DNA of 58,521 nt from a virus (IMGVR_UViG_3300049927_000079:1-58521), one strand, 5' to 3'; positions 30,461 to 49,364 are shown, counted from the first letter of the stretch. Numbers and translations are program-made. Notes: a model not told the origin generated them from the letters alone.

Positions 30461-31768
30461 TTATTCCCCCTTCTTTCTTGGTTGATTGATGTCCTGCCGG
30501 CGCCCTTCGAGCCCAAGCATGTCGCGGAACAGCCCCATAGCCGCCAGCCGCTTGTTAGTCTCCATCGCGAACTGGAAGAAGTTTTTCTCCAGGTCCTTTG
30601 TGCTCGAAAACTCTTCTCCGCCCATTTTGAAGCTGGCCAGAACTTGCGCGTAATCGAGGATCACATCGAAGGCGTCCTTCGAGATTTGCACAAAGTCGGC
30701 ATCGAGTACCGGGACCGGCGCGTTGCCTACCACTACCAGAGACACACCCCGTGGTGATCCGCCTACCGGACACGGAGCCAAAAAGTCCATCCCGGCAGTC
30801 ACAATCGAAGGCCATGCGCTGCCATCGTTCTGCCATTCAGGAGAGAATCCATCCTGCTCGCGCACAGAAGGCGTATCCACAGGGATACCGTTGATTGTCG
30901 CTGTCAGCAGCCAGTTTGACGCCTTCATAATCTGCAGACCATCCTGGTAGCGCTTCAGGCAGTAGTCGGCGCGCGCGCGATCGGTAGCTTCGGAATCCCG
31001 CCCCAGGAGATCCGACATAGCGCCCCACTTGGCCAACCATGACCAGTCATCCGGAACCCCAAGCAGAGTATTCGCCGGAGGATTAAACGGTATCCCGGCC
31101 ATGAGTGCGATGACGTCGTATTGGCCAGCCACGTTTGGCCCTGTGTCCACATCCATTGCCAAAGGCGGCCCGGTGATGACGCCCCAGGACTGCGGGACGC
31201 TAGGAGTCTGGGCATGGTCAGGCTCGAAGCTGTCCCATGCGAGGTTATCTTCCCGCGTCATCGTATTGGGCAACCCGGAATCCGGCATGAAGCGAGCCCG
31301 CCGCAGTTCAAGCGTTGAATCCGGGAAATACGTCCTGCGCGTGTTGGGAACTGAGGGTAGCGGACCCATCTGCGCGATGTTGCAGCCCGAGACCTGGATC
31401 ATCTCGTCCCGGCGCCGTTGCAGCGCAAATTGAAGGTCGGCAATATTGAACTGCGACGTCCCTGTCCAAACCCCTCCCGTGGGTGGCTCTAGTAAATGAT
31501 ATTCAAGGATTGTGTAGAGGTCGGTGTCAGTGAGGGTGCGAAGGCGGGGAGATCCAGGCAGTCGGGAGAGATCGTACCAGGGAACAAAGTTGGGAGTGAA
31601 AGCCAAATCCGCGTTCCACTGTTCAGTCAACGCATTGAATGTGCGGAGCGCTTCGGCTAGATAAAGTCCAAGTTCAGGATTAGTCCAGAAAGCGTTCGTG
31701 GGGTCCGCTAGGCGCTGTGCGAGCGCCTGCTTTGCAGCAGCGAACGTGAGCCATTGGAATTGTGGCAT
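30461..31768 (-). CDS. Head-tail adaptor-like protein
   Basis: RL.D....FW...EL..Y..EA.R N-terminus; internally repeated P.D......L motifs. Confidence 0.55.
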   Translation of the reverse strand: MPQFQWLTFAAAKQALAQRLADPTNAFWTNPELGLYLAEALRTFNALTEQWNADLAFTPNFVPWYDLSRLPGSPRLRTLTDTDLYTILEYHLLEPPTGGVWTGTSQFNIADLQFALQRRRDEMIQVSGCNIAQMGPLPSVPNTRRTYFPDSTLELRRARFMPDSGLPNTMTREDNLAWDSFEPDHAQTPSVPQSWGVITGPPLAMDVDTGPNVAGQYDVIALMAGIPFNPPANTLLGVPDDWSWLAKWGAMSDLLGRDSEATDRARADYCLKRYQDGLQIMKASNWLLTATINGIPVDTPSVREQDGFSPEWQNDGSAWPSIVTAGMDFLAPCPVGGSPRGVSLVVVGNAPVPVLDADFVQISKDAFDVILDYAQVLASFKMGGEEFSSTKDLEKNFFQFAMETNKRLAAMGLFRDMLGLEGRRQDINQPRKKGE

Positions 31769-32106: not shown

Positions 32107-32484
32107 CTATGGGGTCGTTGGTGCCGTTGCCGGTGCCGGTGCCGGTGCCGCGTTCAGTACTTGAACCACGGCGTTGATGTACGACGTCACCGCCGCAGTG
32201 CTGCCGTCCTTACCAGCATCCTTTAGCCCTTGAGCAATCACTGGTTGCATAAGCTGAAGGACATCAGCCAATTTCTGTGGTCCCGTTCCAGCCTGATTAC
32301 CGAGCGCTGCCGCCTTCTGTTCTGCGAGCACCACAGCGGAAACGGTTGAGTTGAATAGCGGGCCGAGAGCAGGAGCGAATAAGCTAACCGCAACCTCTCC
32401 CGCACCCTCCGCCCAAGGCAGGATAAAATTGAGGCCCTTCTTGAAGTCGTGTCCGACCGCCTTGAGAAAACTTACGAAGCTCAT
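32107..32484 (-). CDS. Lysis-cassette amphipathic protein (holin-like candidate)
   Basis: GGAGG RBS; follows the endolysin; PAPAPATAP tail. Confidence 0.5.
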   Translation of the reverse strand: MSFVSFLKAVGHDFKKGLNFILPWAEGAGEVAVSLFAPALGPLFNSTVSAVVLAEQKAAALGNQAGTGPQKLADVLQLMQPVIAQGLKDAGKDGSTAAVTSYINAVVQVLNAAPAPAPATAPTTP

Positions 32485-32485
32485 A

Positions 32486-32884
32486 CTATTCCTCCCGGTA
32501 AAAAGAATGGTGTCCAATTTTGGCCGTTGCGGTCATTTGTTGCGCCCATGCGGGGATCGGGATTGAATCCGCAAAGTAGTGCGTGGCCCCGTTCGTAAGA
32601 TCAGAGTCTCCGCCCTGAAAGATTGAGTCCGCAACATCATAGCAGTCCACAAAAGGGGCATCTGGCGAGACAGGAACTTTAGCCAACTGCGGATCATTGG
32701 AGGCAGTCATGGAGGAAAACTGCCAAGGTTGATAGACGATTTCTGCCCATGACTTGTTGTGCTTCAGAGCTCGATTCTGAATCACATGCAGAACTGCACG
32801 GATACCGTCGCGCCCCTCCCCGCGAGCCTCGCGCCATGCACAGAGCGCAGCGCACCACTTTTGGAATTCGTTCCAGTTCATCAT
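32486..32884 (-). CDS. Endolysin, cell wall hydrolase SleB/Hydrolase_2 family
   Basis: W.EARGEG, V..VI.NR, QFS, GATHY and IGHH.FY. Confidence 0.9.
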   Translation of the reverse strand: MMNWNEFQKWCAALCAWREARGEGRDGIRAVLHVIQNRALKHNKSWAEIVYQPWQFSSMTASNDPQLAKVPVSPDAPFVDCYDVADSIFQGGDSDLTNGATHYFADSIPIPAWAQQMTATAKIGHHSFYREE

Positions 32885-33279
32885 TTCCCCAAGTAGTGCA
32901 GCAACAGATTCAGTCCCACTGCTATAACACTGATCCCGGCTCCCATAGCCCACATGCGACCTTCCATGTTGCTCCTGTTAGTTTCGAGTAGCTTGAGTCG
33001 GGCATCCATTTCACTTCGCAGAGCATTATGCTGTTCATCATACATATCGCGCCGCATAAACTCGCCACGTTCATGAGCGATTTGCTCCCGAAACTGGTTC
33101 ATCTCATCCAGGCGTCGGTCTATTTCTCTGCGAGCTAATACTAGTGCTTCTTTGTCAACGATGTGAAACCGGTGGTGCGCGTCTTGCCACTGTTCGCGAA
33201 GCTCGCGCTCATGGACAGTAAGCCTCCAACACTCCTCAACATTGTGTCGCTCGGATTTACTTGTTTCTTTGTCATCCAT
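32881..33279 (-). CDS. Coiled-coil protein with C-terminal TM (holin/antiholin-like)
   Basis: Charged helix then MWAMGAGISVIAVGLNLLL. Confidence 0.55.
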   Translation of the reverse strand: MDDKETSKSERHNVEECWRLTVHERELREQWQDAHHRFHIVDKEALVLARREIDRRLDEMNQFREQIAHERGEFMRRDMYDEQHNALRSEMDARLKLLETNRSNMEGRMWAMGAGISVIAVGLNLLLHYLGK

Positions 33280-33312
33280 CTCACATATTCTCCCTGGGGG
33301 GAGGGGGGGGGC

Positions 33313-33795
33313 TTATTCTCCTACTTTGCGCTCAACACTCAGTTTATCAACTGCGACCACGGCTGGATCGTAACTTGGTATCTCTCCCTTGAACACACTC
33401 GGCAACCAGGCGAACTTTGGACTACTCGAAAGAATGAACTGAATTTGATCGAGCGCCAAGTCTACAAGAAATCCGAAACTCGCTGCTGTAGTCAAGGTCG
33501 GAGGAATCGTAATCCAGTTGGCAAGGCCTGGAGTCACGCCGAGATAGATAACCCCCTTCGAGAGCGTCCCTGGATCACGCAGCCAGAGCGAGAACAGCAC
33601 CGTGTTAATGGCAGAGCGCAACAGGAACACGTCCCAATTTCGGGACACAAAGGACCAGCGCGAAGGGTACGTATTGACCTTGCTCCGGAACGCCGTAGAT
33701 GCCCGCTGCAGCAATCGCAGCAGGATTCCCATGTAGAACATCACGATCAGCAAGACTGTGGGATTCAGCCACAGCGCCCCAACTTTTATGTCCAT
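33313..33795 (-). CDS. Multi-TM membrane protein (holin candidate)
   Basis: About three hydrophobic segments; first gene of the lysis cassette; GAGGG RBS. Confidence 0.55.
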   Translation of the reverse strand: MDIKVGALWLNPTVLLIVMFYMGILLRLLQRASTAFRSKVNTYPSRWSFVSRNWDVFLLRSAINTVLFSLWLRDPGTLSKGVIYLGVTPGLANWITIPPTLTTAASFGFLVDLALDQIQFILSSSPKFAWLPSVFKGEIPSYDPAVVAVDKLSVERKVGE

Positions 33796-33807
33796 GATTC
33801 CCTCATT

Positions 33808-36800
33808 TTACTGAACTCCCACGACAAGATGGCCACCTAAAACCAAAACTCCCCCGAGCGTAACTTTCACCGGACCCGGAGGAGGCGGAACCGGAATCGC
33901 TGTGCCCTGCAACGCAATCGTCTGCGGACTGTTTACCGTATTTGAGACCACCGAAATAGATCCGAGATGCACGTTGCTGATACAGCCTCCGGCGCTGTCA
34001 AACTGCCCACACAAGGTCGAAGGAGTAAAGGTAGCCTGCTCTGAGCAGAAGGCGCCAACTGCGAGCGTAGAGCCGCAGGCTCCGGTTACGGCAAAGTCCG
34101 CAGTCGTAGATGTCACCGCGAGCCCTGTGGCAGTCGCCGTGCCGTTGTTTGTGACAATGAATACCAAGGGATTGCTGGTTTTCCCTACCGTCTGGTTGCC
34201 GAAATCAATGCGCGAGATCCCGAGAACTATGTTTGGCGTCCCCGTGAAACCTGTGCAACTGAGGGTCGCGGTATCCGGACTGCTCGCAGCATTCGACGCG
34301 AATATCAGGGTCGCAGTCAGGAACCCTGTCGCCGTGGGTTGGCAGTTCACCGTAGCCGTGCAGGAATTGCCAGCCGTTACCGTCCCGCAGTTGTCGCTTT
34401 CAATGAACTGGGTTGGATTGGCGCCGCCAAAGGTTAGCGGAGTCGCGATCACCAGGTCCGCATTCCCGGTATTGGTCGCGGTGACAGTCAAGCCGGCCGA
34501 GGTTGTTCCCGTCTGAATGCTCGGCGGAGAGAAGGCCAGCGACGTTGGGGCCAGCGAGATCCGCGGCGTAGGCGCAGCCACTCCATTCACCGTCAATGTA
34601 AGGTTCTGCGGGCTGTCGGACGCATCATCCACCACATGAACGTTCGCCGTGCGTGCGCCAGTCCCGCCAGGTGTCACTGAGACATCCACGGGGCAGAAGG
34701 CACCAGGAGCGAGGGTCAACCCGCAGTGATTGACCAAGGTGTAATCCCCTGGGTTGGTTCCGGTCAGGGCGATGCTCGAAAGGTTCAGCGTTGCCGTGCC
34801 AGTGTTCTGGATCTGGCCACTGACCACTTTAGACAACACGCCTACCGTGACGTTCCCGAAATCAATCGAAGATGGAGTCAACGTAACCGCGGGCGCCGTC
34901 GCTACGCCTGTGCAACTCAGAGACACCGTGAGGGGAGAAATGCTTGTTCCGGTAAAGGGTTGCGTGAAGGTTCCAGACTGCGCGCCGGCAGCGATCGGAT
35001 TACAGCGAATGAAGTACTGACATTGCGCCTGGGGAGCAAGGTTTTGGTTGCAGGTTGGATTCCCGAAAATGAAGCTAAAATTTGGATCGTTGATGGTCGC
35101 TCCCCCGAGCGCCAAGGATGTATTCCCAGTGTTCTGCAGGGTCACCGCTTGGTTAGCGCTTACCTGCCCCACCGTGATGCTTCCGAAGGACAGGCTGGAC
35201 GGGGTAAGCGTGGCGCCGTCTTGTGTACCGAAGCCGGAGAGAGTTACGACATTTGGAGACGAAGCGGCGTTTGAAGCAATCGAAATATTTCCCGTAAGCG
35301 GACCAGCCGAGAGCGGCGCGAACTTGACGTTAATGGTGCAGGTAGATCCAACCGTGACCGTCCCGCAAGCGTTGGCCTGGGAGAAATTTCCGGTTGGAGT
35401 CACGCTCGAAACAACCAAGCTGGCCGTGCCGCAGTTGGTTACTACAACCGGCAGGCTGGCTGAAACCGAGTTTACCGGAGTGTTCGGGAAACTAAGGCTG
35501 GTCGCACTCAAGCAGACTGCCGGAGCGGTTGCTACTCCTGTCCCGGTAAGAGCCGCAGTCGATGGAGTCGTACTCGCGCTATTGACCAGCGTCAGAGTCG
35601 CCGCGCGCGCGCCAGTCGTGGTTGGCTTGAAGGCCGCGGGGATGATGCAATTCTGCCCACCCGGAAGCGGGTTGGCGCAACTGTTTGCCAAGAGAACGAA
35701 GTCTCCCGGATTGGCTCCGGCCAGTGAAAGCGTCCAGCGCATCGGGCCTGTGCCTGTATTCGACCAAGTGAAGTTGAACGGTGCGGTTTGTGTCCCAGAC
35801 ACTTGCGAGCCGAAATCATGGGATACAGGAGCAAGGCTGGCAATCGGAGCCGTGCCAGTGCCCGAGAGAGACGCCTGGTGCGGACTGCCCGTGGCGCTAT
35901 CTGCCATCGACAGCGCAGCAATCTTGAGGCCGATAGAAAGCGGGCTGAAGTACACCGGGATCGTGCAACTGGCGCCGGCAGCCAGCGTAGTGACTCCGGC
36001 CGGAGTGAAGGAGAAAGCCTTAACAAACTGCCAGCGCGTCCCATTCGTAGCCAAGCCACCAAACGCGGCATTGTTGGTGCCCCAGAGATTCATCATGGGG
36101 TTGGCAGGAGCAAACGGGATGTTCGTGCTGTGCGTCTGACTCAGCGTGCCATCAATCGAAAACGCTACCGAAGGCGCCGTCCACTTGAAGCCATAAACGT
36201 GGAACCCCAGTTCCGGGTTGGCCAGAGTAGCCGTGGTTGCAGTGTTCAGGGACGGAGTGCTCCAAGTTGTCCACTCGATCGTATTCGGTAGTCGCCCTTC
36301 AATCTCCGGCGAATCAATCTCCGTGTAGGGATTCGAGATGGAACTGTTCAGAATGAAGTCGGAAGAAACCTGTCCCGAGGGAACCGTGCCAGTCAAGTAA
36401 GGCGTGGTCGCCGTGGATGCAGAGCGCATCGACCAGCGATAACTTCCGAAACCGAAAGCTGTGGTCGATCGTACTTCCGCGCCCACCGAAATCGTAGGAG
36501 CCGCCCCGCTCTGGACTACCTTCAGTCCGAGCATCCCGTTCGACAAGTCCACATTCGAGGTCGAGAAGGTGCTTGTGTTCACGCCTCCGATATTTCCCGG
36601 AGCCGTCCCGGTATCTATCTGCCACTTGGAACTGAGGGCGCCCTGGTCGAAGTTGTCAGTGAATCCACTGGCTGCGGTCGCGCACTCGCCGGCAGTAAAG
36701 TCTCCGGGATTCGCTCCAATCAGCGACACTCCGGAAATTGTTACCGGCGAGGTTCCCGTGTTGGTCGCCGTCACGTTCGTAACTGGAGAGAAGTTACCTA

Positions 36801-39774
36801 CCAGAACATCGTTGAAGTTCACCGTGGACGGTGCGAGTTGAATGGTCCCAGGGACGGTCCCTGTACCTGTCAAGGTTGAGCCTACCGGCGCACCATTCGA
36901 GGCCACCGAAAGCGCAGAGGTCAAGAGGCCCGCTGCTGCTGGCTTGAAGAATGCATTGATGGTGCAGGACTGAGCCGGCGTTATCGTCCCGGTCGAAGGG
37001 CAGTTGTTCGACTGCGAATAGGCGGTTGGATTCGTGCCGCCAAGACTGATGGTGACTCCGGTCGAATTGATGCTTCCGCTCGCAGTGAGGGTGAAGGCTT
37101 GGCACAGGACCGATGTTCCTACCTGTTGATTCCCGCACGCCGCACTGGACGGACTAAGCGTCATGGCAGCCGCGCCGCCGACGCCGCTCATCGGAACTGT
37201 TTGTGGAGATCCGGGAGCGTTGTCAGTGAAACTCATATTGGCCGTGCGCGAGCCCGTAGCCGTTGGGCAGAACTTGGCGCTCTGCGTACAGGAAGATCCA
37301 GGTCCGAGTGAACCACCCCCCGCACCCGTCGCAGTGAAAGTGGAGAAGCCGTAGTCTGCTTGAGTATTCGCTCCCTGCAGGAACATACCCATTCCCGGAA
37401 AACCTGAAGCGAACGTTGTATCGGTAGCCGTGTTGACCTGGATGCCGTTTTTGAACACGGTGATAGTCGAGCCCGTGATTGACGCCTTGACTACATCTCC
37501 GTTGACTACCGCGCCTCCTACCGCCTTATTGGAGAGCATAGTGAAGCTGCCAAGCGGTCCATTCCAGCGAACAATTTGGGTGTAGGACTGACCCGGCCCA
37601 ACCGCAAAATTTATTTCGTAGCCCTTTATGCTGTGCGGAGCGATCGTAGTGCGAAGCCGTAGTTCCAGTTCCTCAAACGTCGATTGAACGTGTGAGACGG
37701 TGTGGACAGTTGCGGTAACCGTCTGGTCGTTATTCCATGATCCACCGACTACCGCGGTCGAGTCGTTCAGGGCGCCAGAACCAGTTTGCGTCCCGAAAGC
37801 AAGTCCGGGAGTTGTTCGGACGTTGGCCCAGTCGAGACCTGTCGTTCCACCATTGATCCAGTTCCCGCCTTCTGAAATCGGGTTCTCGGTAGCCGGGAAG
37901 TTGGTTGTGTAGGTGCGCGAAGCCAGCAGGCTAGGACAACTGCCAGTTCCGCCTACCGGAAAGTCCAAGGGGTTCGTGCCCGTGAAACCAAGGTTGGTAA
38001 TGGTCAAAGCCGTACTGCCCGTGTTGGTCAGCGTGGTTTGCTGGACTGCGCTGCAACTACCAGGTGCGATCGTACCAAAGTTGAGCACGGCAGGATTAAG
38101 ACTCACAGTGGAAGTACCGCCTGTCACCGTAAGAGCAACCTGGTGCGGCGAACCTACGGCATTGTCGGTCAAGGTCAGGAAAGCGCTACGCACTCCGCTT
38201 GCCGTGGGTTTGGCAGTTATGCTGAACGCGCAGCTAGCAGCAGCCGCAAGCGAGGCGGGACAGTTATTCGTCTGCGAGAAGTCTCCCAGGTTGGTTCCGG
38301 TGATTGCCTTGCCTGAAATAGTGAGTGCCGCATTCCCTGGATTAGACAGCGCGACTACGACCGGAGAGGACGACGTACTTACCGGGACCGTGCCGAAGTT
38401 GACCGATCCTGGACTGAAAGCCACGGCCGGAGCCAGTCCGCCTACGCATCCGCCCGCGAGACCTTCCATGCCAAGGGCCACGCACGGGTCTGCGATGTGG
38501 AAGTGTTGCAATACATTCAACCCGTTGACCAAACTAACGTTCGCCCACCATGCCGTGTTGTACTGTCTTGTACTGTGCGGAGCGGAAGGGTTAGGCCAAG
38601 TACCTACGCACGGTCCCCCAACACATGCTCCCCCTCCCGGCGCCCCTCCTCCTGTGCGGTCAGTGAAGGTGCAGGGCGCAATGCATTGTGCGTTCATAGC
38701 AGCCGAGAAATTGTTCGCTACGGTTTGGGCTCCTGGATAACCGTGCGTCTGCAGCCATGAGTAAGGCGTCTCGCTCTCAATGCTCGGCAGGGCTACTGCG
38801 TCTCCGTTCCCGGTTCCGCCAATGATGATGCCGTAGAGGGTCGCCGCACGGAGAATCGCGTACTGAATAATTCCAAGTTTAGCGATTCCAGGACAGGACG
38901 GTTGCACGGGATCGAAACAGTTGAGTTGCGGCGTAGTGTAATCGAGAAAGAACAAAGATCCGTTCGGAGGTCGGTTCACGTCAGTCGAGGCAGGGCTTGT
39001 TTTAGAAGTACAAAGTTGTCCCGGACTACCGCCGCCAGAACCGATAGGAAACACCGTGAAACCGGGGTAGCGCCCAGTAGGAACGCCGCTTCCGGAGCAC
39101 AGCGAGTAGCCGTACAGCGCATGATTGATTACTCCGGAAAGCAATTCCTGCAGGCGCATGATCGGGCCGAAGGGGGAAGTACCGCCCGTGATCGTTGAGC
39201 CAGTCTGGTAACCGGGTCCGGTATTCCACACATCCATGCCGCAATAACTGTTGCCGTTGTGCGTAAATGTTCCAGGTACAGCCGGGATCTGTCCTGCCCC
39301 GAAGGTATAGAACACCCAAAGTTTGCCAGTCACCTGATCGTAGAGGAGGAAATTGGAATCAGAATTTCCGCCTGTGAAGCCGTTGTATGGCAGGAGGGGC
39401 TGCATGTGGACGATTTGGCCGTTGAGCCCACTGGCATACGAGTTCCCGCTGCAACCTTGCACCGGCCACGTAGGATCACTGGCCTGTCCGAAGTAGAGCG
39501 GCCATGAACTGAAGTCGTCGCTCCCTGGCGTGTGGTACGGGCCTGTTTGAAAATTAGTAAAGTTGCCGGTGACGTTCTGGATCATTTGTGCCGACCCAGG
39601 CATCAGGTTGCCCAACGGCCCGCCCGCGCCGGCATTGGGCAGTTGATGGTTATAGAAGGCAGCCGGATAGGGTCGGTTACTGTTTGCCGGCTGGTTCAGG
39701 ATGTTGTAAGGCGGAGTTTGCGCGAGGGCGCCCGCAACCAGGAACAGGAGCGCGGAGATGAGTCTGCGAATCAA
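33808..39774 (-). CDS. Giant secreted adhesin (1988 aa): signal peptide, N-terminal domain, ~10 ASH/choice-of-anchor-D Ig repeats, nested lectin-like and GH16 domains
   Basis: TTG at 39774 with GAGG RBS; MIRRLISALLFLVAGALA|Q; repeats P.SL.FG...V....TL.NTG...L.....G.N..DF....C..L..G.SC....F.P; EIDSPE GH16 motif. Confidence 0.85.
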   Translation of the reverse strand: MIRRLISALLFLVAGALAQTPPYNILNQPANSNRPYPAAFYNHQLPNAGAGGPLGNLMPGSAQMIQNVTGNFTNFQTGPYHTPGSDDFSSWPLYFGQASDPTWPVQGCSGNSYASGLNGQIVHMQPLLPYNGFTGGNSDSNFLLYDQVTGKLWVFYTFGAGQIPAVPGTFTHNGNSYCGMDVWNTGPGYQTGSTITGGTSPFGPIMRLQELLSGVINHALYGYSLCSGSGVPTGRYPGFTVFPIGSGGGSPGQLCTSKTSPASTDVNRPPNGSLFFLDYTTPQLNCFDPVQPSCPGIAKLGIIQYAILRAATLYGIIIGGTGNGDAVALPSIESETPYSWLQTHGYPGAQTVANNFSAAMNAQCIAPCTFTDRTGGGAPGGGACVGGPCVGTWPNPSAPHSTRQYNTAWWANVSLVNGLNVLQHFHIADPCVALGMEGLAGGCVGGLAPAVAFSPGSVNFGTVPVSTSSSPVVVALSNPGNAALTISGKAITGTNLGDFSQTNNCPASLAAAASCAFSITAKPTASGVRSAFLTLTDNAVGSPHQVALTVTGGTSTVSLNPAVLNFGTIAPGSCSAVQQTTLTNTGSTALTITNLGFTGTNPLDFPVGGTGSCPSLLASRTYTTNFPATENPISEGGNWINGGTTGLDWANVRTTPGLAFGTQTGSGALNDSTAVVGGSWNNDQTVTATVHTVSHVQSTFEELELRLRTTIAPHSIKGYEINFAVGPGQSYTQIVRWNGPLGSFTMLSNKAVGGAVVNGDVVKASITGSTITVFKNGIQVNTATDTTFASGFPGMGMFLQGANTQADYGFSTFTATGAGGGSLGPGSSCTQSAKFCPTATGSRTANMSFTDNAPGSPQTVPMSGVGGAAAMTLSPSSAACGNQQVGTSVLCQAFTLTASGSINSTGVTISLGGTNPTAYSQSNNCPSTGTITPAQSCTINAFFKPAAAGLLTSALSVASNGAPVGSTLTGTGTVPGTIQLAPSTVNFNDVLVGNFSPVTNVTATNTGTSPVTISGVSLIGANPGDFTAGECATAASGFTDNFDQGALSSKWQIDTGTAPGNIGGVNTSTFSTSNVDLSNGMLGLKVVQSGAAPTISVGAEVRSTTAFGFGSYRWSMRSASTATTPYLTGTVPSGQVSSDFILNSSISNPYTEIDSPEIEGRLPNTIEWTTWSTPSLNTATTATLANPELGFHVYGFKWTAPSVAFSIDGTLSQTHSTNIPFAPANPMMNLWGTNNAAFGGLATNGTRWQFVKAFSFTPAGVTTLAAGASCTIPVYFSPLSIGLKIAALSMADSATGSPHQASLSGTGTAPIASLAPVSHDFGSQVSGTQTAPFNFTWSNTGTGPMRWTLSLAGANPGDFVLLANSCANPLPGGQNCIIPAAFKPTTTGARAATLTLVNSASTTPSTAALTGTGVATAPAVCLSATSLSFPNTPVNSVSASLPVVVTNCGTASLVVSSVTPTGNFSQANACGTVTVGSTCTINVKFAPLSAGPLTGNISIASNAASSPNVVTLSGFGTQDGATLTPSSLSFGSITVGQVSANQAVTLQNTGNTSLALGGATINDPNFSFIFGNPTCNQNLAPQAQCQYFIRCNPIAAGAQSGTFTQPFTGTSISPLTVSLSCTGVATAPAVTLTPSSIDFGNVTVGVLSKVVSGQIQNTGTATLNLSSIALTGTNPGDYTLVNHCGLTLAPGAFCPVDVSVTPGGTGARTANVHVVDDASDSPQNLTLTVNGVAAPTPRISLAPTSLAFSPPSIQTGTTSAGLTVTATNTGNADLVIATPLTFGGANPTQFIESDNCGTVTAGNSCTATVNCQPTATGFLTATLIFASNAASSPDTATLSCTGFTGTPNIVLGISRIDFGNQTVGKTSNPLVFIVTNNGTATATGLAVTSTTADFAVTGACGSTLAVGAFCSEQATFTPSTLCGQFDSAGGCISNVHLGSISVVSNTVNSPQTIALQGTAIPVPPPPGPVKVTLGGVLVLGGHLVVGVQ

Positions 39775-40505
39775 TACAGATTCCTCGCATGACGCACTGC
39801 AGAAGAAACAAATGGCGCCACTCCGAAAGCAATCGTGGAGTATCCAGGGGCAGCGCTCCCGGTTTTGGTCGTACCTGCCGTATAGGTGCCGGGCGGTAAA
39901 TTGATCCGGTCTGCGATGTTGAGGCAAGCACCATGATTGTTGAATTCAATTGTGAACCCTGAAGCTGGCGTCTCCCCGCTGCACGTCACCACTCCGCTGT
40001 CACCGCTCATGCTGATAATGAGATCATTTGACCCGCTTGTGGTGACTTGGCTGGTAAATGGACTATTGCCCTGGTTCCCCGTATCTACACCAGTTAAGTC
40101 CTGGCCGTACTCACCTACCCAAAGGAATACTGGAGTGCTCCCGCCAGCAGATAAATTGAACGTGTCAGAACCAGAAAACGCTCCTGTGCTTGAGTAAAAC
40201 AGCACGCCTGCCCATGAAGCAAAAGAGATGGAATAAGACTGGCCAATGCCGACTCCGGTGTTACATCCACTCGTAATGCAGCCTGGGAGTGGTGCCTGTG
40301 AAAAAGAATTGCCGGGAGTATCGGTATAGCTCAGGGTATGCGAGTCGCCGCTCACGAAACCTACAGCAACTACTAAATGATGAGCGCTAACCGTGAGAGT
40401 GCAGGAAGTTGTTCCGCCGCTATTGGTATTTGTGCATTGCTGAACCGGAACCGCTGCAGACACGGGTAGCGCGAACAGGGCGAGAATGAATAAGAGTCGT
40501 CGCAT
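39771..40505 (-). CDS. Secreted beta-rich protein
   Basis: MRRLLFILALFALPVSA signal; Ser/Thr/Gly-rich with paired Cys. Confidence 0.75.
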   Translation of the reverse strand: MRRLLFILALFALPVSAAVPVQQCTNTNSGGTTSCTLTVSAHHLVVAVGFVSGDSHTLSYTDTPGNSFSQAPLPGCITSGCNTGVGIGQSYSISFASWAGVLFYSSTGAFSGSDTFNLSAGGSTPVFLWVGEYGQDLTGVDTGNQGNSPFTSQVTTSGSNDLIISMSGDSGVVTCSGETPASGFTIEFNNHGACLNIADRINLPPGTYTAGTTKTGSAAPGYSTIAFGVAPFVSSAVRHARNLY

Positions 40506-42238
40506 CAATTTACCGTGAAATTTACTTGAACCGAGAACCTCTTGGCTACTCCGCCCGCTGTCCCTGATACGGTCTCAATGTAATCCCCAACCGCGATCGC
40601 AGTGTTCTGCAAGGTTGCCGAGCAAGTCGTGAACGTGTCCAGGCCCGCCGTGGCTCCTGTCTTGGAACACGCTGGCGCGCCCGAGGCTGCCGTTGCAAGC
40701 GCACCTGAAACCAGGTTGGTGACGGTGAAGTTGGACGCGCAAGGACTGCCGGTGCAATGACGGATGGCAACAATCACGTTCGGCGTCCCTGCATCTGCGG
40801 TTACGTCAATCTCGTTAACCGTGGCTGCGTAGGCTACTTGGCACTGCTCTTTCTGTGGGCCTATGTCTGTATCCGTCAGGGCGGAACTGGCATTCTCCGC
40901 ACCAAAGACCAGCGCGCAAGTACGTCGCAGACTTGACCCAGACGGCCCTGCGGCAGTTTTCCATAAAGTTACGATGTGCGTGGCATCCGTAACGGTATCA
41001 ATCGTAAGAACTTGACCGGCCGTGCCAGGGACGCCTGGTATTGAGGTTCCGAAGCTGGTTGGAACGGAGGTCGGAGCGTACCAGTAAGCCGTGGTGAGTT
41101 GACTTAGAGTGGGGACTGCACTTTGGCCGAAACCAATGAAGCCCGCGCTTGAACCGGCAAGCGTGACGCTGATGCCGTTGACATTACCGCCGCCATCGGT
41201 CGTAAAGGACGGGTCGCAGGTGACCACGTTCCCCGTCGCAGCGTAGTACGCGATGGCACCCACCGTAGAGCAAGGGGAGACGGTTCCGGTTCCGCCCGAG
41301 GCTTGTGGCGCAACTACGTCAGGAAGGCCGATGCGGATAACCGCATTCGTTGCGGCGCCAGAGTTGACCGATTGCACGCGCGCTATGTTTTGTACCGCAA
41401 CCGGCTCGGTCGCTCCGGCATCGTGGCACTGAGATCCAGAACCAAGCACCACGTAGTCGTTTATCCCAGTTTGATTATCAAAGGTACAGGAGATGGGGCC
41501 TTGCACGGCGACCGAGACCGTACCCGTCGTTCCGGCGCCGGCATCCGCGACACCTAAGAGATTGTTGGCATCGGTCGGTTGTGCATTTCTGGCCTGCAGT
41601 GAAGAGTTGAGACTGACAAGAAGGAATTGCGTGGTGCCGGGAGAACTGGAATTTGCGTAATCAAACTCAAGCGGCGCTTGTACTAGATCCAAGCCGAGTG
41701 GCCATGCGGCCGGGACGATTCCAGTTGCGACACCTTCTGAATTTCCTACCGTGGTCGCAGTGATGAACTTAGCTACGCGGTTTACCGTTCCCGATCCACC
41801 CCCGCCTCCGCCGCCCGCGCCTGTACCTTCGCAGACGTCGGTTAACGTTCGGTTGTACGGCATCGGTACACTCCCGCTCGACATCGTGATGTCGTAGCAG
41901 GCGCCTTGCGCGACGAAGAAAGTAAGACTCCCGTCCACGTTCGCGACAAAAGGATTCACTGAAGGCGTAGGCGTAGGGTTGTTGTCTGAGAAAATATTCG
42001 CCTTGACCAGGGTGCCGGTGTTATAGACGGTCACTATACAACCGGGGAAGGACGCTTGAACTCCGGCGCCAGCGTTGACGTTCGTGGTCCCAATCTGCTG
42101 CGTAGCGGTCGAAGGTAGGCCCGAGGTCAAGGCTTGCTCCCCTCCGATTTGACAATCGCCGTTCACGCCGGCAAGGGTCTGCCCGAAGGCTGGAGCACAA
42201 CACAGAGCGAGAATGAGGACAAGTTTTCTCGTTACCAT
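40505..42238 (-). CDS. Tail-fibre-like protein with Sec signal peptide
   Basis: MVTRKLVLILALCCAPAFG|Q, then VTVYNTGT..KA.IFSD....NPF.A..DG...FF......YDI anchoring-like module, Gly linkers and a C-terminal jelly-roll-like domain. Confidence 0.75.
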   Translation of the reverse strand: MVTRKLVLILALCCAPAFGQTLAGVNGDCQIGGEQALTSGLPSTATQQIGTTNVNAGAGVQASFPGCIVTVYNTGTLVKANIFSDNNPTPTPSVNPFVANVDGSLTFFVAQGACYDITMSSGSVPMPYNRTLTDVCEGTGAGGGGGGGSGTVNRVAKFITATTVGNSEGVATGIVPAAWPLGLDLVQAPLEFDYANSSSPGTTQFLLVSLNSSLQARNAQPTDANNLLGVADAGAGTTGTVSVAVQGPISCTFDNQTGINDYVVLGSGSQCHDAGATEPVAVQNIARVQSVNSGAATNAVIRIGLPDVVAPQASGGTGTVSPCSTVGAIAYYAATGNVVTCDPSFTTDGGGNVNGISVTLAGSSAGFIGFGQSAVPTLSQLTTAYWYAPTSVPTSFGTSIPGVPGTAGQVLTIDTVTDATHIVTLWKTAAGPSGSSLRRTCALVFGAENASSALTDTDIGPQKEQCQVAYAATVNEIDVTADAGTPNVIVAIRHCTGSPCASNFTVTNLVSGALATAASGAPACSKTGATAGLDTFTTCSATLQNTAIAVGDYIETVSGTAGGVAKRFSVQVNFTVN

Positions 42239-42933
42239 ACTCCGCTTCCTTTTCGCGTGGGCACTTGTGGAGGGACGATTGGCTTGAAAGTTGCCATTAC
42301 TGCCTCCGGCAATGGTGATCCCGATTGTGTCCAAGAGGGATTCACGGCACCGATCGGCGTTTTGACCAGATAAGCCATGTAACAAGTCGTAGTGGTTCCT
42401 GAGTTAAGGATTCCAACGGGAGTAGAGAATCCGGAATCTATAGTCGGAACACTCGCAGTTTGCGAGCCGAATGCACTTACAAAAAGCTCGTTATTGAAAG
42501 ACGGCGTGAGGCTCCCTGGTTGAATCGGAGAACTACCGCTTGACCCGCTTTGACCTTCAAAGGCTGATGACGGCAATGTTCCAGAGAAGGCCATTGCCGC
42601 CATACCTGCGAATGAACTAGAGGTTGCCGTGGTAAACGTGTGCGAGGCTCCAACGGTTCCGGGAATACTGTAAAACATGCGAGTGTGCGTATTGGTGTGA
42701 ACCTGTTCTGTGAGCGCAGTCCAGGAATTACTTTTTGAATCTGTTGGAACAGCCGGCGTTTTTTGAAATTCCGAAATGGCTACGACCAACAGAGTCGCAC
42801 CTGTCGTATCCATGACTGCCGTGGTACAGCCATTTGTCCCTCCGCATGTTTGGGGCGTTCCCACCAGGGCAGGTACACCCCAAGCAAAACTAGAGAGTGC
42901 GAGCACGAATGCGAAAATGAGCGCCTGTCTCAT
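42232..42933 (-). CDS. Secreted beta-rich protein
   Basis: MRQALIFAFVLALSSFAWG signal; DTTGATLLVVA...TDSKSNSWT module, similar in type to 39771..40505. Confidence 0.75.
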   Translation of the reverse strand: MRQALIFAFVLALSSFAWGVPALVGTPQTCGGTNGCTTAVMDTTGATLLVVAISEFQKTPAVPTDSKSNSWTALTEQVHTNTHTRMFYSIPGTVGASHTFTTATSSSFAGMAAMAFSGTLPSSAFEGQSGSSGSSPIQPGSLTPSFNNELFVSAFGSQTASVPTIDSGFSTPVGILNSGTTTTCYMAYLVKTPIGAVNPSWTQSGSPLPEAVMATFKPIVPPQVPTRKGSGVW

Positions 42934-43802
42934 TGGGTTAGGCTTATAAACCAGCCGGTCTGCTTGCTTGTCCCATCTGCAATAAATGTGAATTTGATTA
43001 CGTCGCCGTTCGCGATCGTAGTAGTCGAACTTAGGGTTCCTGGCGCTCCGCCCGCCGCCGCGGTACAGGTCACCGGAGTCGGACTCAGCAGCGCTGTGCC
43101 GGCGCCGTTGGTGGCACTTAAACTACTGGTTCCGGCATTGTCAGTGAAGCACCCGAGGCGGGTAATCGTCCACGTCACTCCGGAATTGTTGTAGCAGTTG
43201 GTCTGAAGATAGGTGCCCGCTGCCATCGCGTTCAAGCCATCCCCGAGACCGGGATAGCAGCGCAAGATGCTGTACTGTGCCGCCAACTGGGTAGCTGTGA
43301 CCGTGTTGGCAGTCATGTCCGCGCCTACGACCGCACCATAGGTAGGGTCGCCGGCAGCAGCACCGTGCAGCACTGTAGTTGAGGTCCCCAGGCTTGCCAA
43401 GACGGACGGGCACACGCCCGCGCCGCCACCTAGCACAATCGCGTGTTGAGTCAAGGTGCCGGAAGAGGCCCACGTCGCCGCCCCGGTGAAGCACACAATT
43501 CCGCCAGATGTTCCCGCCACAGTGAGCGCGGGGGTAGTCGTCGGATTAGCTACAGAAATCAGTCCGCCCGTGAACGAAACACTGCTAACCGTTCCCCCGC
43601 CACTGCCAGCCACCTTAGTCCATGTCCCGCTTACGCACGTGTAGAGGTCTCCTGTGGTGAGAAGAACTTGTAGATGCTGGCCCTGAGAGCACGTCCCGGA
43701 GGGTGCCGAGGTTACGTAATCCACAAACCCCGGACCCACCACTTGCGCGGGCAGGACGCGCGGCAGAAGAAGCAAAAGAATAAGCAGGGCCGACCACCGC
43801 AT
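42930..43802 (-). CDS. Tail-fibre-like protein with Sec signal peptide (paralogue of 43850..45484 N-terminus)
   Basis: AGGAGG RBS before ATG 43802; MRWSALLILLLLLPRVLPA|QVVGPGFVDYVTSAPSGTC; GTVSSV...TTTP fibre repeat. Confidence 0.75.
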   Translation of the reverse strand: MRWSALLILLLLLPRVLPAQVVGPGFVDYVTSAPSGTCSQGQHLQVLLTTGDLYTCVSGTWTKVAGSGGGTVSSVSFTGGLISVANPTTTPALTVAGTSGGIVCFTGAATWASSGTLTQHAIVLGGGAGVCPSVLASLGTSTTVLHGAAAGDPTYGAVVGADMTANTVTATQLAAQYSILRCYPGLGDGLNAMAAGTYLQTNCYNNSGVTWTITRLGCFTDNAGTSSLSATNGAGTALLSPTPVTCTAAAGGAPGTLSSTTTIANGDVIKFTFIADGTSKQTGWFISLTQ

Positions 43803-43849
43803 TAGTTTAGAGCCTCCTACGATAAATTGCTGCAAGGTCATGTCATTGC

Positions 43850-45484
43850 CTACGGAGAGGTTGCAGCTTCTACCACAAATCGTTGCAGCGTCATGCTGTT
43901 TCCGGCAGTGCTAGCTGAGCAGAAAAGAATTGGCTGAACCACCAGCGTGCCATTCGTGACAAGATTTACCGGCTGGACAACGAATCCTGAAAGCGGTGTT
44001 TTGAAGGGTGTAAAGGCGGTTGTACTCGTGCCTTGCGCCAGGTCCAGAAAAGTATAAACGGCGGCGCTGCCAGATGCAGCCGCTGATCCTTGCATCTCAA
44101 ACGTTACTTCCATCGGAATATTGGTCATGCTTATCGAAGGAGCGGCTGCGGCTGCGGTATATACGTTTGCTCCACCCACACTCAACTGGAAACCGAAGCT
44201 CGGAGGCGAGCTGGAACTGGTAAGAGAGAATCCGAGCGTAATTTTCAACACCTTCTTTGTCGCCAGGTAATTCGCCGGGATAGTGTAGGTAGTTGCGAAA
44301 TTAGCCGTAGTATTATTCGGGCATGACACTGTGTCCGTGTTTGCTACTGAGGACGTTACGATGCCCCACAGACCCGCCGTGATAGCAGGAAATGTCTGAG
44401 TGGTCGAGTCGGTACCCGCAAGCGTTAGAGAGTTATTGATCGTCGCGGTTTTACCATCCGCCACCGTCAGGGTCGAGCTTGTGGCTGGCGCGGTAATCGC
44501 CATCTTGTTGATAGAGCTAGCCGTCGCCACGCCCAAAGTAGGAGTAGTGAAGGATGGCGATACCAGCGGAGCCAAGGAAGCCAGCGCCGTACCGGAGTCT
44601 TGGATAGCTTGGCTGCCCGCTCCAGTAATTACATTGCCCGATGTGTTGGAACTGGCTTGTGTCACCAGGCTGGCTGGGGCGATAGAAAACTTCGCGTAGG
44701 TGAGAGCGCTCCCCGCAGGACCGATTGAAGTCACCTGGGAGGTCAGCAGCCAAGAAGTGGTGGTGTTCGCCGTGCCCGATTGCACCGGGACTGTGCCGGT
44801 GTTGTTTACATCCGATGGCGTATCATAATCGATTGCTCTGGTAAAGACAGGGCTAACGCCCAGAGCGCCTACAATGGTGGCAAAGTAAACTCCATTCTGC
44901 GTTCCATCGGCCTGGTTCTTGAGCAGGACGCGTTGGCCGATGGTGTTGATAGCAATTCCGTCTAAGGTGAAAGATCCCGTAGCCGTCACGGTGAAAAAGT
45001 CTCCGATGCCCGCGCCGACTGCAGTGTAGGCGCCGACCACATTGGCGGTCGAGGCGGCAAGAACCGCTACAGCAGGATTGACTCCTGCGATTGCATTCGC
45101 CACAGCCAGGTCGGTGTAGGCGGTAGTAGAGAGTAGGGTTGAATTATTGTTCTGACTCTGAGTAGCTGCGGTTGCCGAACCAGGGAAAGCGAACGTGCTC
45201 GAAATCGAGAGTACTGGCGTCGTTGTGCCCGTAGCCACATTGATCTGATTGGCCGTACCTGTAACCGAAGTAACCGTACCGCCGCCGCCTGCACCAACCT
45301 GCGCCCACGTCCCAGACTGGCAGGTGTAGATAAATCCGCTGCCGAGAACGTTCTGCTGGTGAGCGCCTTGCGTGCAGGTTCCAGATGGGGCGGAAGTAAC
45401 ATAATCCACAAAACCAGCACCTACTACTTGCGCGGTGGCAAGACTTGTCCAAAATAAGACGATGAATATGAGTTTGCGAATCAT
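43850..45484 (-). CDS. Tail-fibre-like protein with Sec signal peptide
   Basis: MIRKLIFIVLFWTSLATA|QVVGAGFVDYVTSAPSGTC; AASTAN...TLDG......RVLLKNQ...QNGVY....TRA.DYD phage fibre motif. Confidence 0.8.
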   Translation of the reverse strand: MIRKLIFIVLFWTSLATAQVVGAGFVDYVTSAPSGTCTQGAHQQNVLGSGFIYTCQSGTWAQVGAGGGGTVTSVTGTANQINVATGTTTPVLSISSTFAFPGSATAATQSQNNNSTLLSTTAYTDLAVANAIAGVNPAVAVLAASTANVVGAYTAVGAGIGDFFTVTATGSFTLDGIAINTIGQRVLLKNQADGTQNGVYFATIVGALGVSPVFTRAIDYDTPSDVNNTGTVPVQSGTANTTTSWLLTSQVTSIGPAGSALTYAKFSIAPASLVTQASSNTSGNVITGAGSQAIQDSGTALASLAPLVSPSFTTPTLGVATASSINKMAITAPATSSTLTVADGKTATINNSLTLAGTDSTTQTFPAITAGLWGIVTSSVANTDTVSCPNNTTANFATTYTIPANYLATKKVLKITLGFSLTSSSSPPSFGFQLSVGGANVYTAAAAAPSISMTNIPMEVTFEMQGSAAASGSAAVYTFLDLAQGTSTTAFTPFKTPLSGFVVQPVNLVTNGTLVVQPILFCSASTAGNSMTLQRFVVEAATSP

Positions 45485-45924: not shown

Positions 45925-46923
45925 TTAGAACCTCCCAATATTCAACTGTCCATTGACTGTGGCGAACGGCTCACCGTTGTTGTACATATCCGGACGGTAC
46001 TTAGAGAAATAGAGTGAGACGAGATCACTGTCTCGATCCTTGACCGGCTTGATGGTCAACTTGAACTGCTCGCGCGCTTCCTGAATGATGAACTTCCAGT
46101 CCGCACCCTGCCCGCGTTGCATATCCTCGCCCTTATTCGCCTCTTTGAACATGCCCGCCACTTCTTTCGCGCGCCATACAACCGGACTCTCGGTAAGTGG
46201 GTAGGGCAAGGTGTCGTTCGGGTTCTGCAGGAGCGGACCCATGCGAAGGTACTGGTAGGTGTAAGGCAACACGCTCAAAGGGTGCGGCCACAATTCGTAC
46301 AGCATATTTCCAAACGTTGCGCTATTGGGGCGCTGGTCCTGCTCGAACGGAACAAAGTAGTTCGGGTCATCGAAGATGGTTCGCTCCGCATCCTCGACTG
46401 CGAGATCCTTCTGACTCTTGCTCCAATAATCCATCGGCCAGTCGTTCGTAGTATCCCGCGCCGACAGGAATCGCTTGAAATCCGGAACCGGGACGGGAAA
46501 GTATGCCTGGTAGATCATGTAGGTCGCAGTTGCGTTGGTCGGTTCCATCCACGGGCGGTCGAGAGTAAGTATCCCGGTCACGGGATTGATAGCGATGATG
46601 TTGTACAGCGAGTAGAACGGGCTGCGGAATTGAAGCTGCGTAAACAGCGGCATCCCGGTATAGGCCAGCCATGCGTTCTTAGCCGCGAGACTGGGCGCTA
46701 CCAAGGGAGAAAATGCCGTGACTGCAACCGTCCCTACGCTGGTTCCCGGCCCGCTAGGGAACAACAGTCCAGGAGTAAGCCAGCCCGAGGTCTTGAGTTG
46801 CCACGACCACATCTGCGAGCCGTAGATGAGTTCGAGAGCGCGGTTCAGGTACTTCTTCGCTTGCGACGAGGCTATCCCAGGGATTTCGAGCAGCATTTCC
46901 TGGATCATCGTGTTGAGCGACAT
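45925..46923 (-). CDS. Head-tail adaptor protein
   Basis: LNRAL..I....W.W N-terminus and ELWPHP...Y.Y.Y......L....D..P C-terminus. Confidence 0.65.
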   Translation of the reverse strand: MSLNTMIQEMLLEIPGIASSQAKKYLNRALELIYGSQMWSWQLKTSGWLTPGLLFPSGPGTSVGTVAVTAFSPLVAPSLAAKNAWLAYTGMPLFTQLQFRSPFYSLYNIIAINPVTGILTLDRPWMEPTNATATYMIYQAYFPVPVPDFKRFLSARDTTNDWPMDYWSKSQKDLAVEDAERTIFDDPNYFVPFEQDQRPNSATFGNMLYELWPHPLSVLPYTYQYLRMGPLLQNPNDTLPYPLTESPVVWRAKEVAGMFKEANKGEDMQRGQGADWKFIIQEAREQFKLTIKPVKDRDSDLVSLYFSKYRPDMYNNGEPFATVNGQLNIGRF

Positions 46924-48032: not shown

Positions 48033-49364
48033 CTACGCGCTGAATCCGAGAAGCACCTGGTTGTGTCGCGGCATCACGTTATACAGATTGGTGCCGAGAC
48101 GCATAAACAGTGCATCCATCGAAACGTTGTTAGGCATCGGTGCCCTGCGGAGCCCGAAGTTCCAACCCTTCTTGTCAGTCGGCCTCAACTTGAAGCTTCC
48201 GGATTCCAGGAAGTAGAGTACTTCGCCCACGGTGCAAGTCGCGTTCGAGGGGAAGTTGCTCCCGGTCGGAGAGGTAGCCACATTCGAGGTCACACCACCT
48301 ACCGTCTGGGTGTACTGCGGAGTCACCAGCGTTCCAGTCTGCGTGCTCGAACCTGCGCCGTCCTGCAAGTTGTTATTCCCAGACTTGCCGGCTGCCGGAG
48401 CGAGTGACAGGAAATCTCCCGCGAGTGCAGAGGGGGCGAGCGGGTCGGGATAGATCTCCATGCCATTGAACGTGACACCGTAGTAGCCGACATCGAATTT
48501 CTTCATATCGGTATTGCGGCGCTGTGCGTCGAGAGCGTTGACCACGGCAGTAAAGCCAAACACGTTGGTGATGCCCATATCTGGCTTGCCGCCCGTGACT
48601 ACAGCCTGCGCCCATCCGCGGGTAAGGGCATTGACGTCAATCTGTCCAGTCCCATTGGTCGCGAGTGCAGCAGCAGTCGCGCCGGCAGTGGTTCCGCCAA
48701 GGTACAGCGGAGTCGAATTGAGTGCTGGCCCGATAACCCCATTGCGAGTATCTCCCCCGTAAGTGGAGTAAATGTTCCCGAACGGCGACGGGTCGATACC
48801 GTTGTTCAGTCCTTCGTCGAGCCCGTTCGTATTCAGGATGCGGTTGTCTGAGATCCCCGTACCGGCCGGTTGACCGTGACGGAAACTGTCCATCTCGATC
48901 ATGGTATTCAGAGTCATGGTCATGTTTTCCATGAGAATCTGATACTGGTTCGCGATCATGGCAGGACCGGAGTTTACGACTCCGCCCGTACCGCTACCGT
49001 CATCCAGTTCCCAGTCGTCTAGGGGAACCCAGGTCGCGTAGGCTTTCGGCAGGAACTTCATGCCGGTATTGGTCTGCTGGCGAGTGACCGTGACGGTCGA
49101 ACCCGGAGCAAGAGCGGCGCCCTGCACGCGCCCGTAGATGAAGCCCTCGAACATTCCCGAGCCACCCAGGAACGGATCGAGTACGCCGGCCGCGCGCAAT
49201 TTAGCTTGGAACGGTGTATCGACAAAAAGGTTATCGAACACAACGTTCTTTCTTACTGATTCTAAATTAGTTGCGTCGATTTCCGAGTAGAGAGGGTCCG
49301 TGAGGAACGCGAAATTTAACTGGAACAGCCTCGCCAGCGTCAACAGCAGGAACTTGATAAGCAT
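48033..49364 (-). CDS. Major capsid protein
   Basis: Position after the scaffold, AGGAG RBS, I.AT.......DN.F..TP, NGL, G.P..G.T and G..GVTFNG..I.PD motifs. Confidence 0.8.
   Translation of the reverse strand: MLIKFLLLTLARLFQLNFAFLTDPLYSEIDATNLESVRKNVVFDNLFVDTPFQAKLRAAGVLDPFLGGSGMFEGFIYGRVQGAALAPGSTVTVTRQQTNTGMKFLPKAYATWVPLDDWELDDGSGTGGVVNSGPAMIANQYQILMENMTMTLNTMIEMDSFRHGQPAGTGISDNRILNTNGLDEGLNNGIDPSPFGNIYSTYGGDTRNGVIGPALNSTPLYLGGTTAGATAAALATNGTGQIDVNALTRGWAQAVVTGGKPDMGITNVFGFTAVVNALDAQRRNTDMKKFDVGYYGVTFNGMEIYPDPLAPSALAGDFLSLAPAAGKSGNNNLQDGAGSSTQTGTLVTPQYTQTVGGVTSNVATSPTGSNFPSNATCTVGEVLYFLESGSFKLRPTDKKGWNFGLRRAPMPNNVSMDALFMRLGTNLYNVMPRHNQVLLGFSA

Follow-up and report, generated by a model that had tools for sequence, protein, structure and literature searches.

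A six-gene tail-fibre module with a Sec-type leader on every gene: candidate export-dependent spike assembly in a relative of short-tailed Acidobacteriota phages

Textbook accounts place the assembly of tailed phages wholly in the cytoplasm. The complete soil-virus record IMGVR_UViG_3300049927_000079 (58,521 bases with direct terminal repeats at its ends; the whole stretch was analysed and is herein referred to as the window) raises the question of why every gene of a tail-fibre module should open with what looks like a secretion signal. Six consecutive minus-strand genes, designated F1 to F6, lie between the adaptor genes and the lysis genes, are translationally coupled and all begin with basic-hydrophobic leaders. 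An initial annotation had reported these leaders and had put the module at ~11.7 kb, or one-fifth of the genome; the measured span is 11,677 bases (20%), and the six start positions that it gave are correct by open reading frame (ORF) and start context. The genes are as follows:

43850..45484, minus strand: F1, fibre-like protein, 544 amino acids (aa); leader of ~18 residues at 45431-45484
42930..43802, minus strand: F2, fibre-like paralogue of F1, 290 aa; leader at 43746-43802; 8 Cys
42232..42933, minus strand: F3, Ser/Thr/Gly-rich protein, 233 aa; leader at 42877-42933
40505..42238, minus strand: F4, predicted tailspike, 577 aa; leader at 42182-42238, head-binding domain at ~41819-42181, distal part variable
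39771..40505, minus strand: F5, beta-sandwich-like putative accessory protein, 244 aa; leader at 40455-40505; 6 Cys
33808..39774, minus strand: F6, giant protein with a TTG start, 1988 aa; leader at 39721-39774; 44 Cys

Neighbouring genes overlap by 4 bases (F2/F3), 7 bases (F3/F4), 1 base (F4/F5) and 4 bases (F5/F6, where the TTG start of F6 is embedded in TTGA), and the 47-base gap between F1 and F2 is accompanied by an AGGAGG nine bases upstream of the F2 ATG. We tentatively propose, with a confidence that falls slightly short of an even chance, that these genes form a receptor-binding module (one tailspike, the fibre-like pair F1 and F2, the small accessory proteins F3 and F5, and a giant enzyme that combines immunoglobulin (Ig) repeats with GH16) whose products would be exported by Sec, folded with disulfides in the periplasm and joined to particles late. 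The components of this proposal differ in strength: the six leaders are a solid observation, the export reading is well supported by the sequence evidence set out below, and late joining is the most conjectural part.

Leaders were scored with a crude rule for the n-, h- and c-regions of signal peptides (herein the n-h-c rule), which requires K/R among the opening residues, a run of 8-17 uncharged residues that averages at least 1.9 on the Kyte-Doolittle scale, and small residues at positions -3 and -1. Applied to the start codons listed above, and to those of the other late genes, the rule flags 6/6 module genes and 0/19 other late, structural or lysis proteins. With alternative starts allowed in a greedy map of 65 ORFs (from which F3 and F5 are absent), 11 ORFs are flagged, namely four module genes, two small ORFs with good leaders and five weak cases, two of them antisense. 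The module leaders are 17-19 residues long, with hydrophobic cores of 9-17 residues, often with Pro or Gly inside or after the core, followed by a small-x-small site; the n-, h- and c-region layout of a Sec signal cut by signal peptidase I (SPase I) is found in all six. Directly behind this small-x-small site stands Gln in 4/6 leaders, with Val and Ala in one each.

Other classes of signal do not fit these leaders. Twin-arginine (Tat) signals carry S/T-R-R-x-F-L-K in a longer, less hydrophobic leader; the present leaders are short, and the RR pairs in F5 and F6 are without the surrounding consensus. Lipoprotein signals, which are cut by SPase II, have an L-[AS]-[GA]-C lipobox at the cleavage site; Cys occurs only in the F4 leader, after Leu, at a position that is not Cys in homologues. 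Nor is a dual-start arrangement credible: just behind the leaders there is no in-frame start with a Shine-Dalgarno-like sequence except a TTG at F4 codon 37, and starting there would cut into a conserved domain. The concern that the true starts might lie downstream of the leaders is thereby weakened, as no plausible second start was found. As a separate observation, two small minus-strand ORFs far from the module, at 670-975 (101 aa) and 1009-1344 (111 aa), also have good Sec-type leaders and no Pfam or NCBIfam match.

The leaders recur in relatives of this virus. A search with the capsid protein recovered 21 related loci at 66-90% identity. The closest of these (G001, capsid 90% identical) has leaders on 5/5 module genes, with an extra leader-bearing gene of 541 aa that has no counterpart here, and a second (G002) has leaders on 6/6; four partial loci (L032/33, L034, L036 and L038/39) have a leader on every visible fibre-region gene. 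A further locus (G003, L037) has leaders on 2/4 genes, and in the more distant L040-L046 and L049 the gene order is different and leader presence is mixed. The sequences of the leaders vary among relatives and the n-h-c pattern is constant; cassettes have been exchanged with leaders retained, and the module is mosaic between close relatives.

Among GenBank phages, a tblastn search with the F4 N-terminus matched only the Tunturiibacter phages Tunturi 1 and Tunturi 2 (PP887698, PP885685). In Tunturi 1 the genes stand in the same order, identity is 27-37% for the core proteins and 28% for the capsid protein, and gp12 carries the F4-type N-terminal domain (N-domain). Leaders are present on 5/6 proteins of gp12-gp17 (gp12, gp13, gp14, gp16 and gp17, of which gp14 is annotated 'tail spike protein' and gp17 'virion structural protein') and on 0/9 upstream structural proteins; they are found in Tunturi 2 as well. 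The expectation that homologues would keep the leaders is therefore borne out, their type being conserved across relatives whose capsid proteins are 28-90% identical (G001, G002 and Tunturi 1). Tunturi 3, which was isolated on the same Tunturiibacter host strain as Tunturi 1, has a leader on 0/23 structural-block proteins, and its fibres have 0-7 Cys against 20-30 in the large spike-region proteins of Tunturi 1. A host-wide compositional artefact is rejected on this comparison, since the absence of leaders from a phage of the same host makes them a property of the phage lineage and not a host-wide bias or an artefact of the rule. As far as the accessible part of the report on these isolates goes, Tunturi 1-3 are podoviruses isolated on Acidobacteriota, and its main text contains 'signal peptide', 'mass spectrometry' and 'transmembrane' 0 times each, though its supplementary ORF table may hold predictions (PMC11924767). 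The host of the present virus is probably also a member of the Acidobacteriota; neither the capsid protein nor the F4 N-terminus retrieved a relative from genome contigs, so that this assignment derives from the distant Tunturi relationship only.

What links the module to the virion is F4. Directly after its leader lies a domain of ~120 residues with two Cys pairs, and these first ~120 mature residues are conserved in 14/21 related loci, three of the 14 homologues being leaderless. A profile built from 11 of the homologues (profile A1, with 8/11 sequences leader-bearing) matched the 'Tail spike protein' of Pan3 in the PDB (9vyg/9vyh, residues 20-74, E 1.6e-4 to 1.2e-3) and, weakly, the 'Tailspike head-binding domain' 7eeq (E 0.19). 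An AlphaFold2 model of the domain had a mean predicted local distance difference test (pLDDT) score of 73, with 83-96 in 10-residue blocks over model residues 41-120. For this model Foldseek ranked highest the spikes of Pan3 and Pam1, the head-binding domain of P22 and gp14N of Sf6, at probabilities of 0.95-1.00. VIA gave Z of 9.7 for Pan3 (root-mean-square deviation 2.3, 81 aligned), 8.4 for Pam1, 8.1 for P22 (1lkt, 2vky) and 8.0-8.1 for Sf6, and its top 13 rows are all tailspike N-domains (best unrelated row Z 6.9), though a Z near 8 may reflect a common arrangement. The ESM Atlas offers, as a lead only, a 'Tailspike head-binding domain family protein' (score 0.86). By profile and predicted fold, then, the F4 N-domain is a podovirus tailspike head-binding domain, and it is predicted to bind the particle. 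That F4 is a virion part is supported by this homology and fold match and by the leaderless homologues that related phages encode among their structural genes.

The cysteines of this domain track the leader. In three related loci (L041, L045 and L046) the F4-homologous spike opens with Met at the domain itself and is devoid of Cys at the four positions, at which leader-bearing homologues have two or four Cys (one or two pairs). Profile A1 matched 5022 proteins at E ≤1e-3 among 1.84 billion representatives, and the following Cys-pair counts cover the best 150 of the 5022. Among the 111 leader-bearing proteins both Cys of pair 1 are present in 110 and one Cys in the remaining one, whereas among the 39 leaderless proteins neither is present in 23, the second only in 11 and both in five; four of these five begin inside an apparent truncated leader and are likely miscalled starts. 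An even number of Cys in the mature protein is found in 94/112 leader-bearing and 17/38 leaderless F4-type relatives, and in 47/49 and 12/30, respectively, of the F1-type set (79 relatives of the F1 N-module). Median Cys content is 2.15% with a leader and 0.99% without for the F4 type, and 1.99% and 0.38% for the F1 type; even beyond the N-domain, F4-type medians are 2.05% (leader) and 1.37% (leaderless; Mann-Whitney p 4e-4). The even-Cys pattern is, as far as sequence can tell, a classic signature of exported, disulfide-bonded proteins. Within the module itself, mature F1 to F6 have 4, 8, 3, 14, 6 and 44 Cys (even in 5/6), and Cys account for 2.09% of residues; the figure is 0-0.7% for the portal, the capsid and adaptor proteins and the structural proteins of 435, 926, 519 and 638 aa.

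The remaining module proteins are less readily assigned. Searches of Pfam, PHROGs and NCBIfam gave no match for F2, F3, F4 or F5. F1 consists of its leader, a small two-Cys N-module, a Gly run and a widespread fibre motif, and it matches phrog_2647 weakly (E 3.3e-7); residues 19-110 match 79 other proteins. The leader-adjacent two-Cys module is also found in F2 (58% identity over 95 residues), and the fibre motif of F1 and F2 also opens leaderless fibres that are without the Cys module. The F2 homologue in G001 is 74% identical, with the leader present. F5 has seven homologues of 199-246 aa and resembles viral beta-sandwich proteins of ~250 aa; as leads only, the Atlas places it nearest to clusters of viral hypothetical proteins (score 0.96), and a cluster of similar structure bears the name 'Minor tail protein' (template modelling score 0.66).

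F6 comprises an N-domain of ~430 residues, 12 choice-of-anchor-D/HYDIN-type Ig repeats, a GH16 domain and a conserved C-terminus. The repeats match NCBIfam choice_anch_D (NF012200, E 1.5e-138, 12 stretches) and Pfam HYDIN_VesB_CFA65-like_Ig (PF22544, E 6.5e-46), and the whole protein matches phrog_18474 'hydrolase' (E 3.3e-91). The GH16 domain (residues 1069-1236, ~36067-36570) matches Glyco_hydro_16 (PF00722, E 6.2e-12, 45.8 bits against a cut-off of 22), and NCBIfam beta-glucanase equivalogs score far under their cut-offs (55.5 against 300). The GH16 catalytic motif is E-x-D-x-x-E, and the F6 translation holds a matching E-I-D-S-P-E stretch. Five relatives of the F6 N-domain were found (length range searched 1093-3479 aa), of which four are leader-bearing and all five have even Cys counts (36-46); in 4/5 the domain lies at the C-terminus instead. 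Relative to its G001 homologue (38440-39720 against L051:5193-6520), the first ~445 residues of F6 are unrelated and the protein is 52-64% identical from residue 446 on, an N-terminal domain swap with the leader retained. The F6 C-terminus (33808-33900) passes from a Pro-rich linker into a hydrophobic tail rich in Gly and Val that is not followed by basic residues, an arrangement kept in the G001 homologue and in P0235; candidate roles for the tail are those of an anchor, a trimerisation strand or a sorting signal.

We hypothesize the following route. The module proteins would cross the inner membrane unfolded, and SPase I would cut after the small-x-small site, mostly before Gln. Folding, oligomerisation and disulfide formation would then take place in the periplasm, and would be carried out by host enzymes; DSBA (PF01323) and Peptidase_S26 (PF10502) are absent from the phage. 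DNA-filled, spike-less particles would meanwhile be assembled in the cytoplasm from leaderless head, adaptor and hub proteins. The two pools would come together only in the lysate or on opening of the inner membrane by the holin, and the head-binding domain would dock the spikes on the tail. Canonical holins make very large membrane lesions, and P22 tailspikes attach to spike-less heads in vitro, which makes late docking chemically plausible. Likely benefits would be disulfide-hardened spikes suited to acidic, protease-rich soil, and a free enzyme that loosens the polysaccharide coat of the host ahead of release.

Several points weigh against this proposal. The n-h-c rule is untrained, and its cleavage positions are approximate. 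Export with periplasmic oxidation, as the initial annotation had suggested, gains from leaders conserved as a type, from leaderless homologues that have no domain Cys and from the even-Cys bias, all of which is sequence evidence; export, cleavage, disulfides and virion membership are themselves what we infer from it. Direct evidence of a particle-binding domain exists for F4 only, where the Foldseek E-values are weak (2e-3 to 0.5) and neither Head_binding (PF09008) nor any other Pfam family matches at E 0.01, so that the F4 domain is to be regarded as a structural and distant sequence relative and not as a member of PF09008. The cysteine statistics have exceptions and limits of their own: F3 has an odd count (the only one in the module), as do 18/112 leader-bearing F4-type relatives, and the best-150 list is biased toward profile A1, most of whose sequences have leaders. 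In a FastTree phylogeny of this short domain the leader state changes at least six times, and with one independent pair on supported branches a sign test cannot reach significance; the link between leader and Cys may thus reflect one or a few old transitions and is not statistically independent. Two-compartment joining of spikes is, to our knowledge, unprecedented for tailed phages, and a lysate would dilute the parts to be joined.

Three rival explanations of the leaders, and a fourth put forward in the initial annotation, have to be set against the proposal. Most of the protein might be exported as a free enzyme or adhesin that digests or masks surface polysaccharide, aids release and prevents progeny from sticking to debris, with a late, unexported fraction that folds in the cytoplasm arming the particle. 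Such a dual fate requires no new assembly route, and free forms of tailspike depolymerases are well known; the GH16 domain of F6 and the different N-domain of its G001 homologue are also in its favour, enzyme swapping being suited to depolymerase roles. We nevertheless consider it unlikely: the Cys pairs that track the leader sit inside the head-binding domain, a domain without obvious use in a free enzyme, and leaders stand on every module gene, the small non-enzymatic ones included, here and in both G001 and G002. The unexported fraction is a further difficulty, since no second start would yield a leaderless form and an uncleaved hydrophobic leader would occupy the docking domain. Somewhat less probable again is an exported set with no place in the virion, in which adhesins and enzymes built from fibre parts would serve exit, superinfection exclusion or biofilm remodelling, and the real receptor binder would be a leaderless conserved tail protein such as that of 926 aa. 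Choice-of-anchor D repeats typically occur in secreted proteins of bacteria, F2, F3, F5 and F6 have no demonstrated particle-binding domain in Pfam, PHROGs or NCBIfam, and the two small leader-bearing proteins noted above are encoded far from the module. The earlier statement that no leaderless long fibre gene lies elsewhere stands in that no variable leaderless fibre was seen, but leaderless long late proteins do exist (926, 638, 519 and 435 aa), and one of them could be the receptor binder. An exported non-virion set is hard to reconcile, however, with an F4 N-domain that corresponds by profile and fold to a tailspike head-binding domain, with leaderless homologues of that domain among the structural genes of related phages, and with the coupling of the module between adaptor and lysis genes; moreover, the module shows the mosaicism between close relatives that is usual for receptor-binding genes, whereas conservation of the 926-aa protein extends to Tunturi 1.

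The hydrophobic N-termini might alternatively belong to proteins that are never exported, either as uncleaved structural or membrane-active segments of virion proteins or because the true starts lie elsewhere, which we regard as very improbable. The crudeness of the n-h-c rule, which with alternative starts yields five weak, apparently false hits in the set of 65 ORFs, lends this some weight. Yet short cores followed by Pro or Gly and a small-x-small site are typical of cleaved signals, the leader sequence is free to vary, the start of leaderless homologues coincides with that of the domain, neither a conserved Met nor a ribosome-binding site follows the leaders, and the even-Cys bias is hard to explain for cytoplasmic proteins. 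Finally, the suggestion in the initial annotation that the module might be a surface structure displayed by lysogens is disfavoured, as the genes are translationally coupled within a late operon and, in the accessible part of the report on the Tunturi phages, integrase or recombinase genes are given for Tunturi 3-5 only and not for Tunturi 1-2 (PMC11924767). The Cys pair inside the docking domain, together with the all-or-none presence of leaders across the module, leads us to favour exported, disulfide-bonded spikes that join particles late over these rivals. Extended to a whole lineage of short-tailed Acidobacteriota phages that includes Tunturi 1 and 2, the proposal becomes slightly less probable: heads and hubs would be made in the cytoplasm, the entire receptor-binding apparatus would be secreted by Sec, disulfide-bonded in the periplasm and docked after the holin breach, and thousands of leader-bearing metagenome relatives would make this a common, overlooked route.

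Known systems offer partial parallels. The spikes P22 gp9 (1lkt, 2vky), Sf6 gp14 (7sg7), those of cyanophage Pam1 (7eeq) and cyanopodophage Pan3 (9vyg) have the same N-terminal beta-sandwich domain on a modular short-tailed-phage spike; F4 differs from them in that its domain stands behind a Sec-type leader and has two Cys pairs. The P22 tailspike is without a signal peptide according to the accessible part of a preprint (10.64898/2026.09.13.751334). Tunturi 1 and 2 resemble the present virus in gene order and leaders, but are distant from it and have different distal domains. Phage late proteins with Sec signals that mature outside the cytoplasm include the Ff coat proteins g3p and g8p and the Sec-exported or signal-arrest-release (SAR) endolysins. 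The Ff proteins are, as in our proposal, true virion parts with periplasmic disulfides, but Ff is non-tailed and is extruded through the envelope without lysis; the endolysins, unlike the proposed spikes, are not virion parts. Host-type SPase I signals that expose an N-terminal Gln have been described in Porphyromonas gingivalis phages and read as an adaptation to host secretion; in the accessible part of that article the signals belong to capsid proteins, to spanins and to five genes without known function, and tail fibres or spikes are not mentioned (Matrishin et al. 2023, PMC10367356). Our literature search found no paper in which tailed phages are described as exporting their tail fibres or tailspikes. 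The leader-linked Cys pair in a head-binding domain, the even-Cys statistic and the comparison of Tunturi 1 and 2 with Tunturi 3 are new here.

A docking domain behind an export signal, with Cys linked to the leader, points to a late assembly step across compartments. Such a step, if real, would change the view of how lysis timing, holin function and spike attachment are coupled, and would explain cysteine-rich, hard-to-express soil-phage fibres. It would also bear on host-range prediction and on the production of such receptor-binding proteins, for which expression in the periplasm or under oxidising conditions would be required. The related phages Tunturi 1 and 2 and the leaderless same-host control Tunturi 3 are in culture, which opens the claim to direct test.

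The module is set in a late operon. Along the minus strand, terminase, portal, scaffold and capsid genes are followed by small head and neck genes, the gene for a 332-aa tail/adaptor protein with a 142-aa gene, the six-gene module (45484 to 33808), the lysis cassette and the genes for structural proteins of 435 and 926 aa; G+C content is 54-59% along the record. PHROGs matched the terminase and capsid genes and gave no match for 8/10 other late proteins. The genes flanking the module are:

45925..46923, minus strand: 332-aa tail/adaptor protein, leaderless, 0 Cys; homologue of Tunturi 1 gp11 'tail protein'
32107..33795, minus strand: lysis cassette of four genes, adjoining the module downstream
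33313-33795, minus strand: holin-like protein with multiple transmembrane segments; putative role, from sequence, with no Pfam family
32881-33279, minus strand: coiled-coil protein with a hydrophobic C-terminal end; putative role, likewise with no Pfam family
32486-32953, minus strand: Hydrolase_2/SleB-type endolysin, leaderless (Pfam PF07486, E 9.9e-17)
32107-32517, minus strand: small hydrophobic protein; putative role, likewise with no Pfam family
30461..31768, minus strand: 435-aa conserved structural protein, leaderless; homologue of Tunturi 1 gp30

Since the endolysin has neither a leader nor a SAR-like segment, lysis should need a hole-forming holin; no lipoprotein-type outer spanin was seen by eye in the cassette. 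The 435-, 926- and 295-aa proteins are core genes in common with Tunturi 1, and in distant relatives an F4-type spike gene lies directly behind the homologue of the 435-aa protein. Sequence searches of the PDB returned no credible match for the tail proteins of 435, 332 and 926 aa, and the AlphaFold2 model of the 435-aa protein (pLDDT 37.8) was not used.

Two minor observations concern these structural genes. The first 20 codons of the capsid gene (49305-49364) are hydrophobic, and 11/21 related loci align with the capsid protein only from residue 21-23, so that its true start may lie ~20 codons downstream. At G002:C1:25717-27654 (in L053) the homologue of the 435-aa protein appears as two matches ~590 bases apart within one open frame of 647 aa (one TAG counted), and this split may reflect an insertion, such as a mobile element or an intein-like piece.

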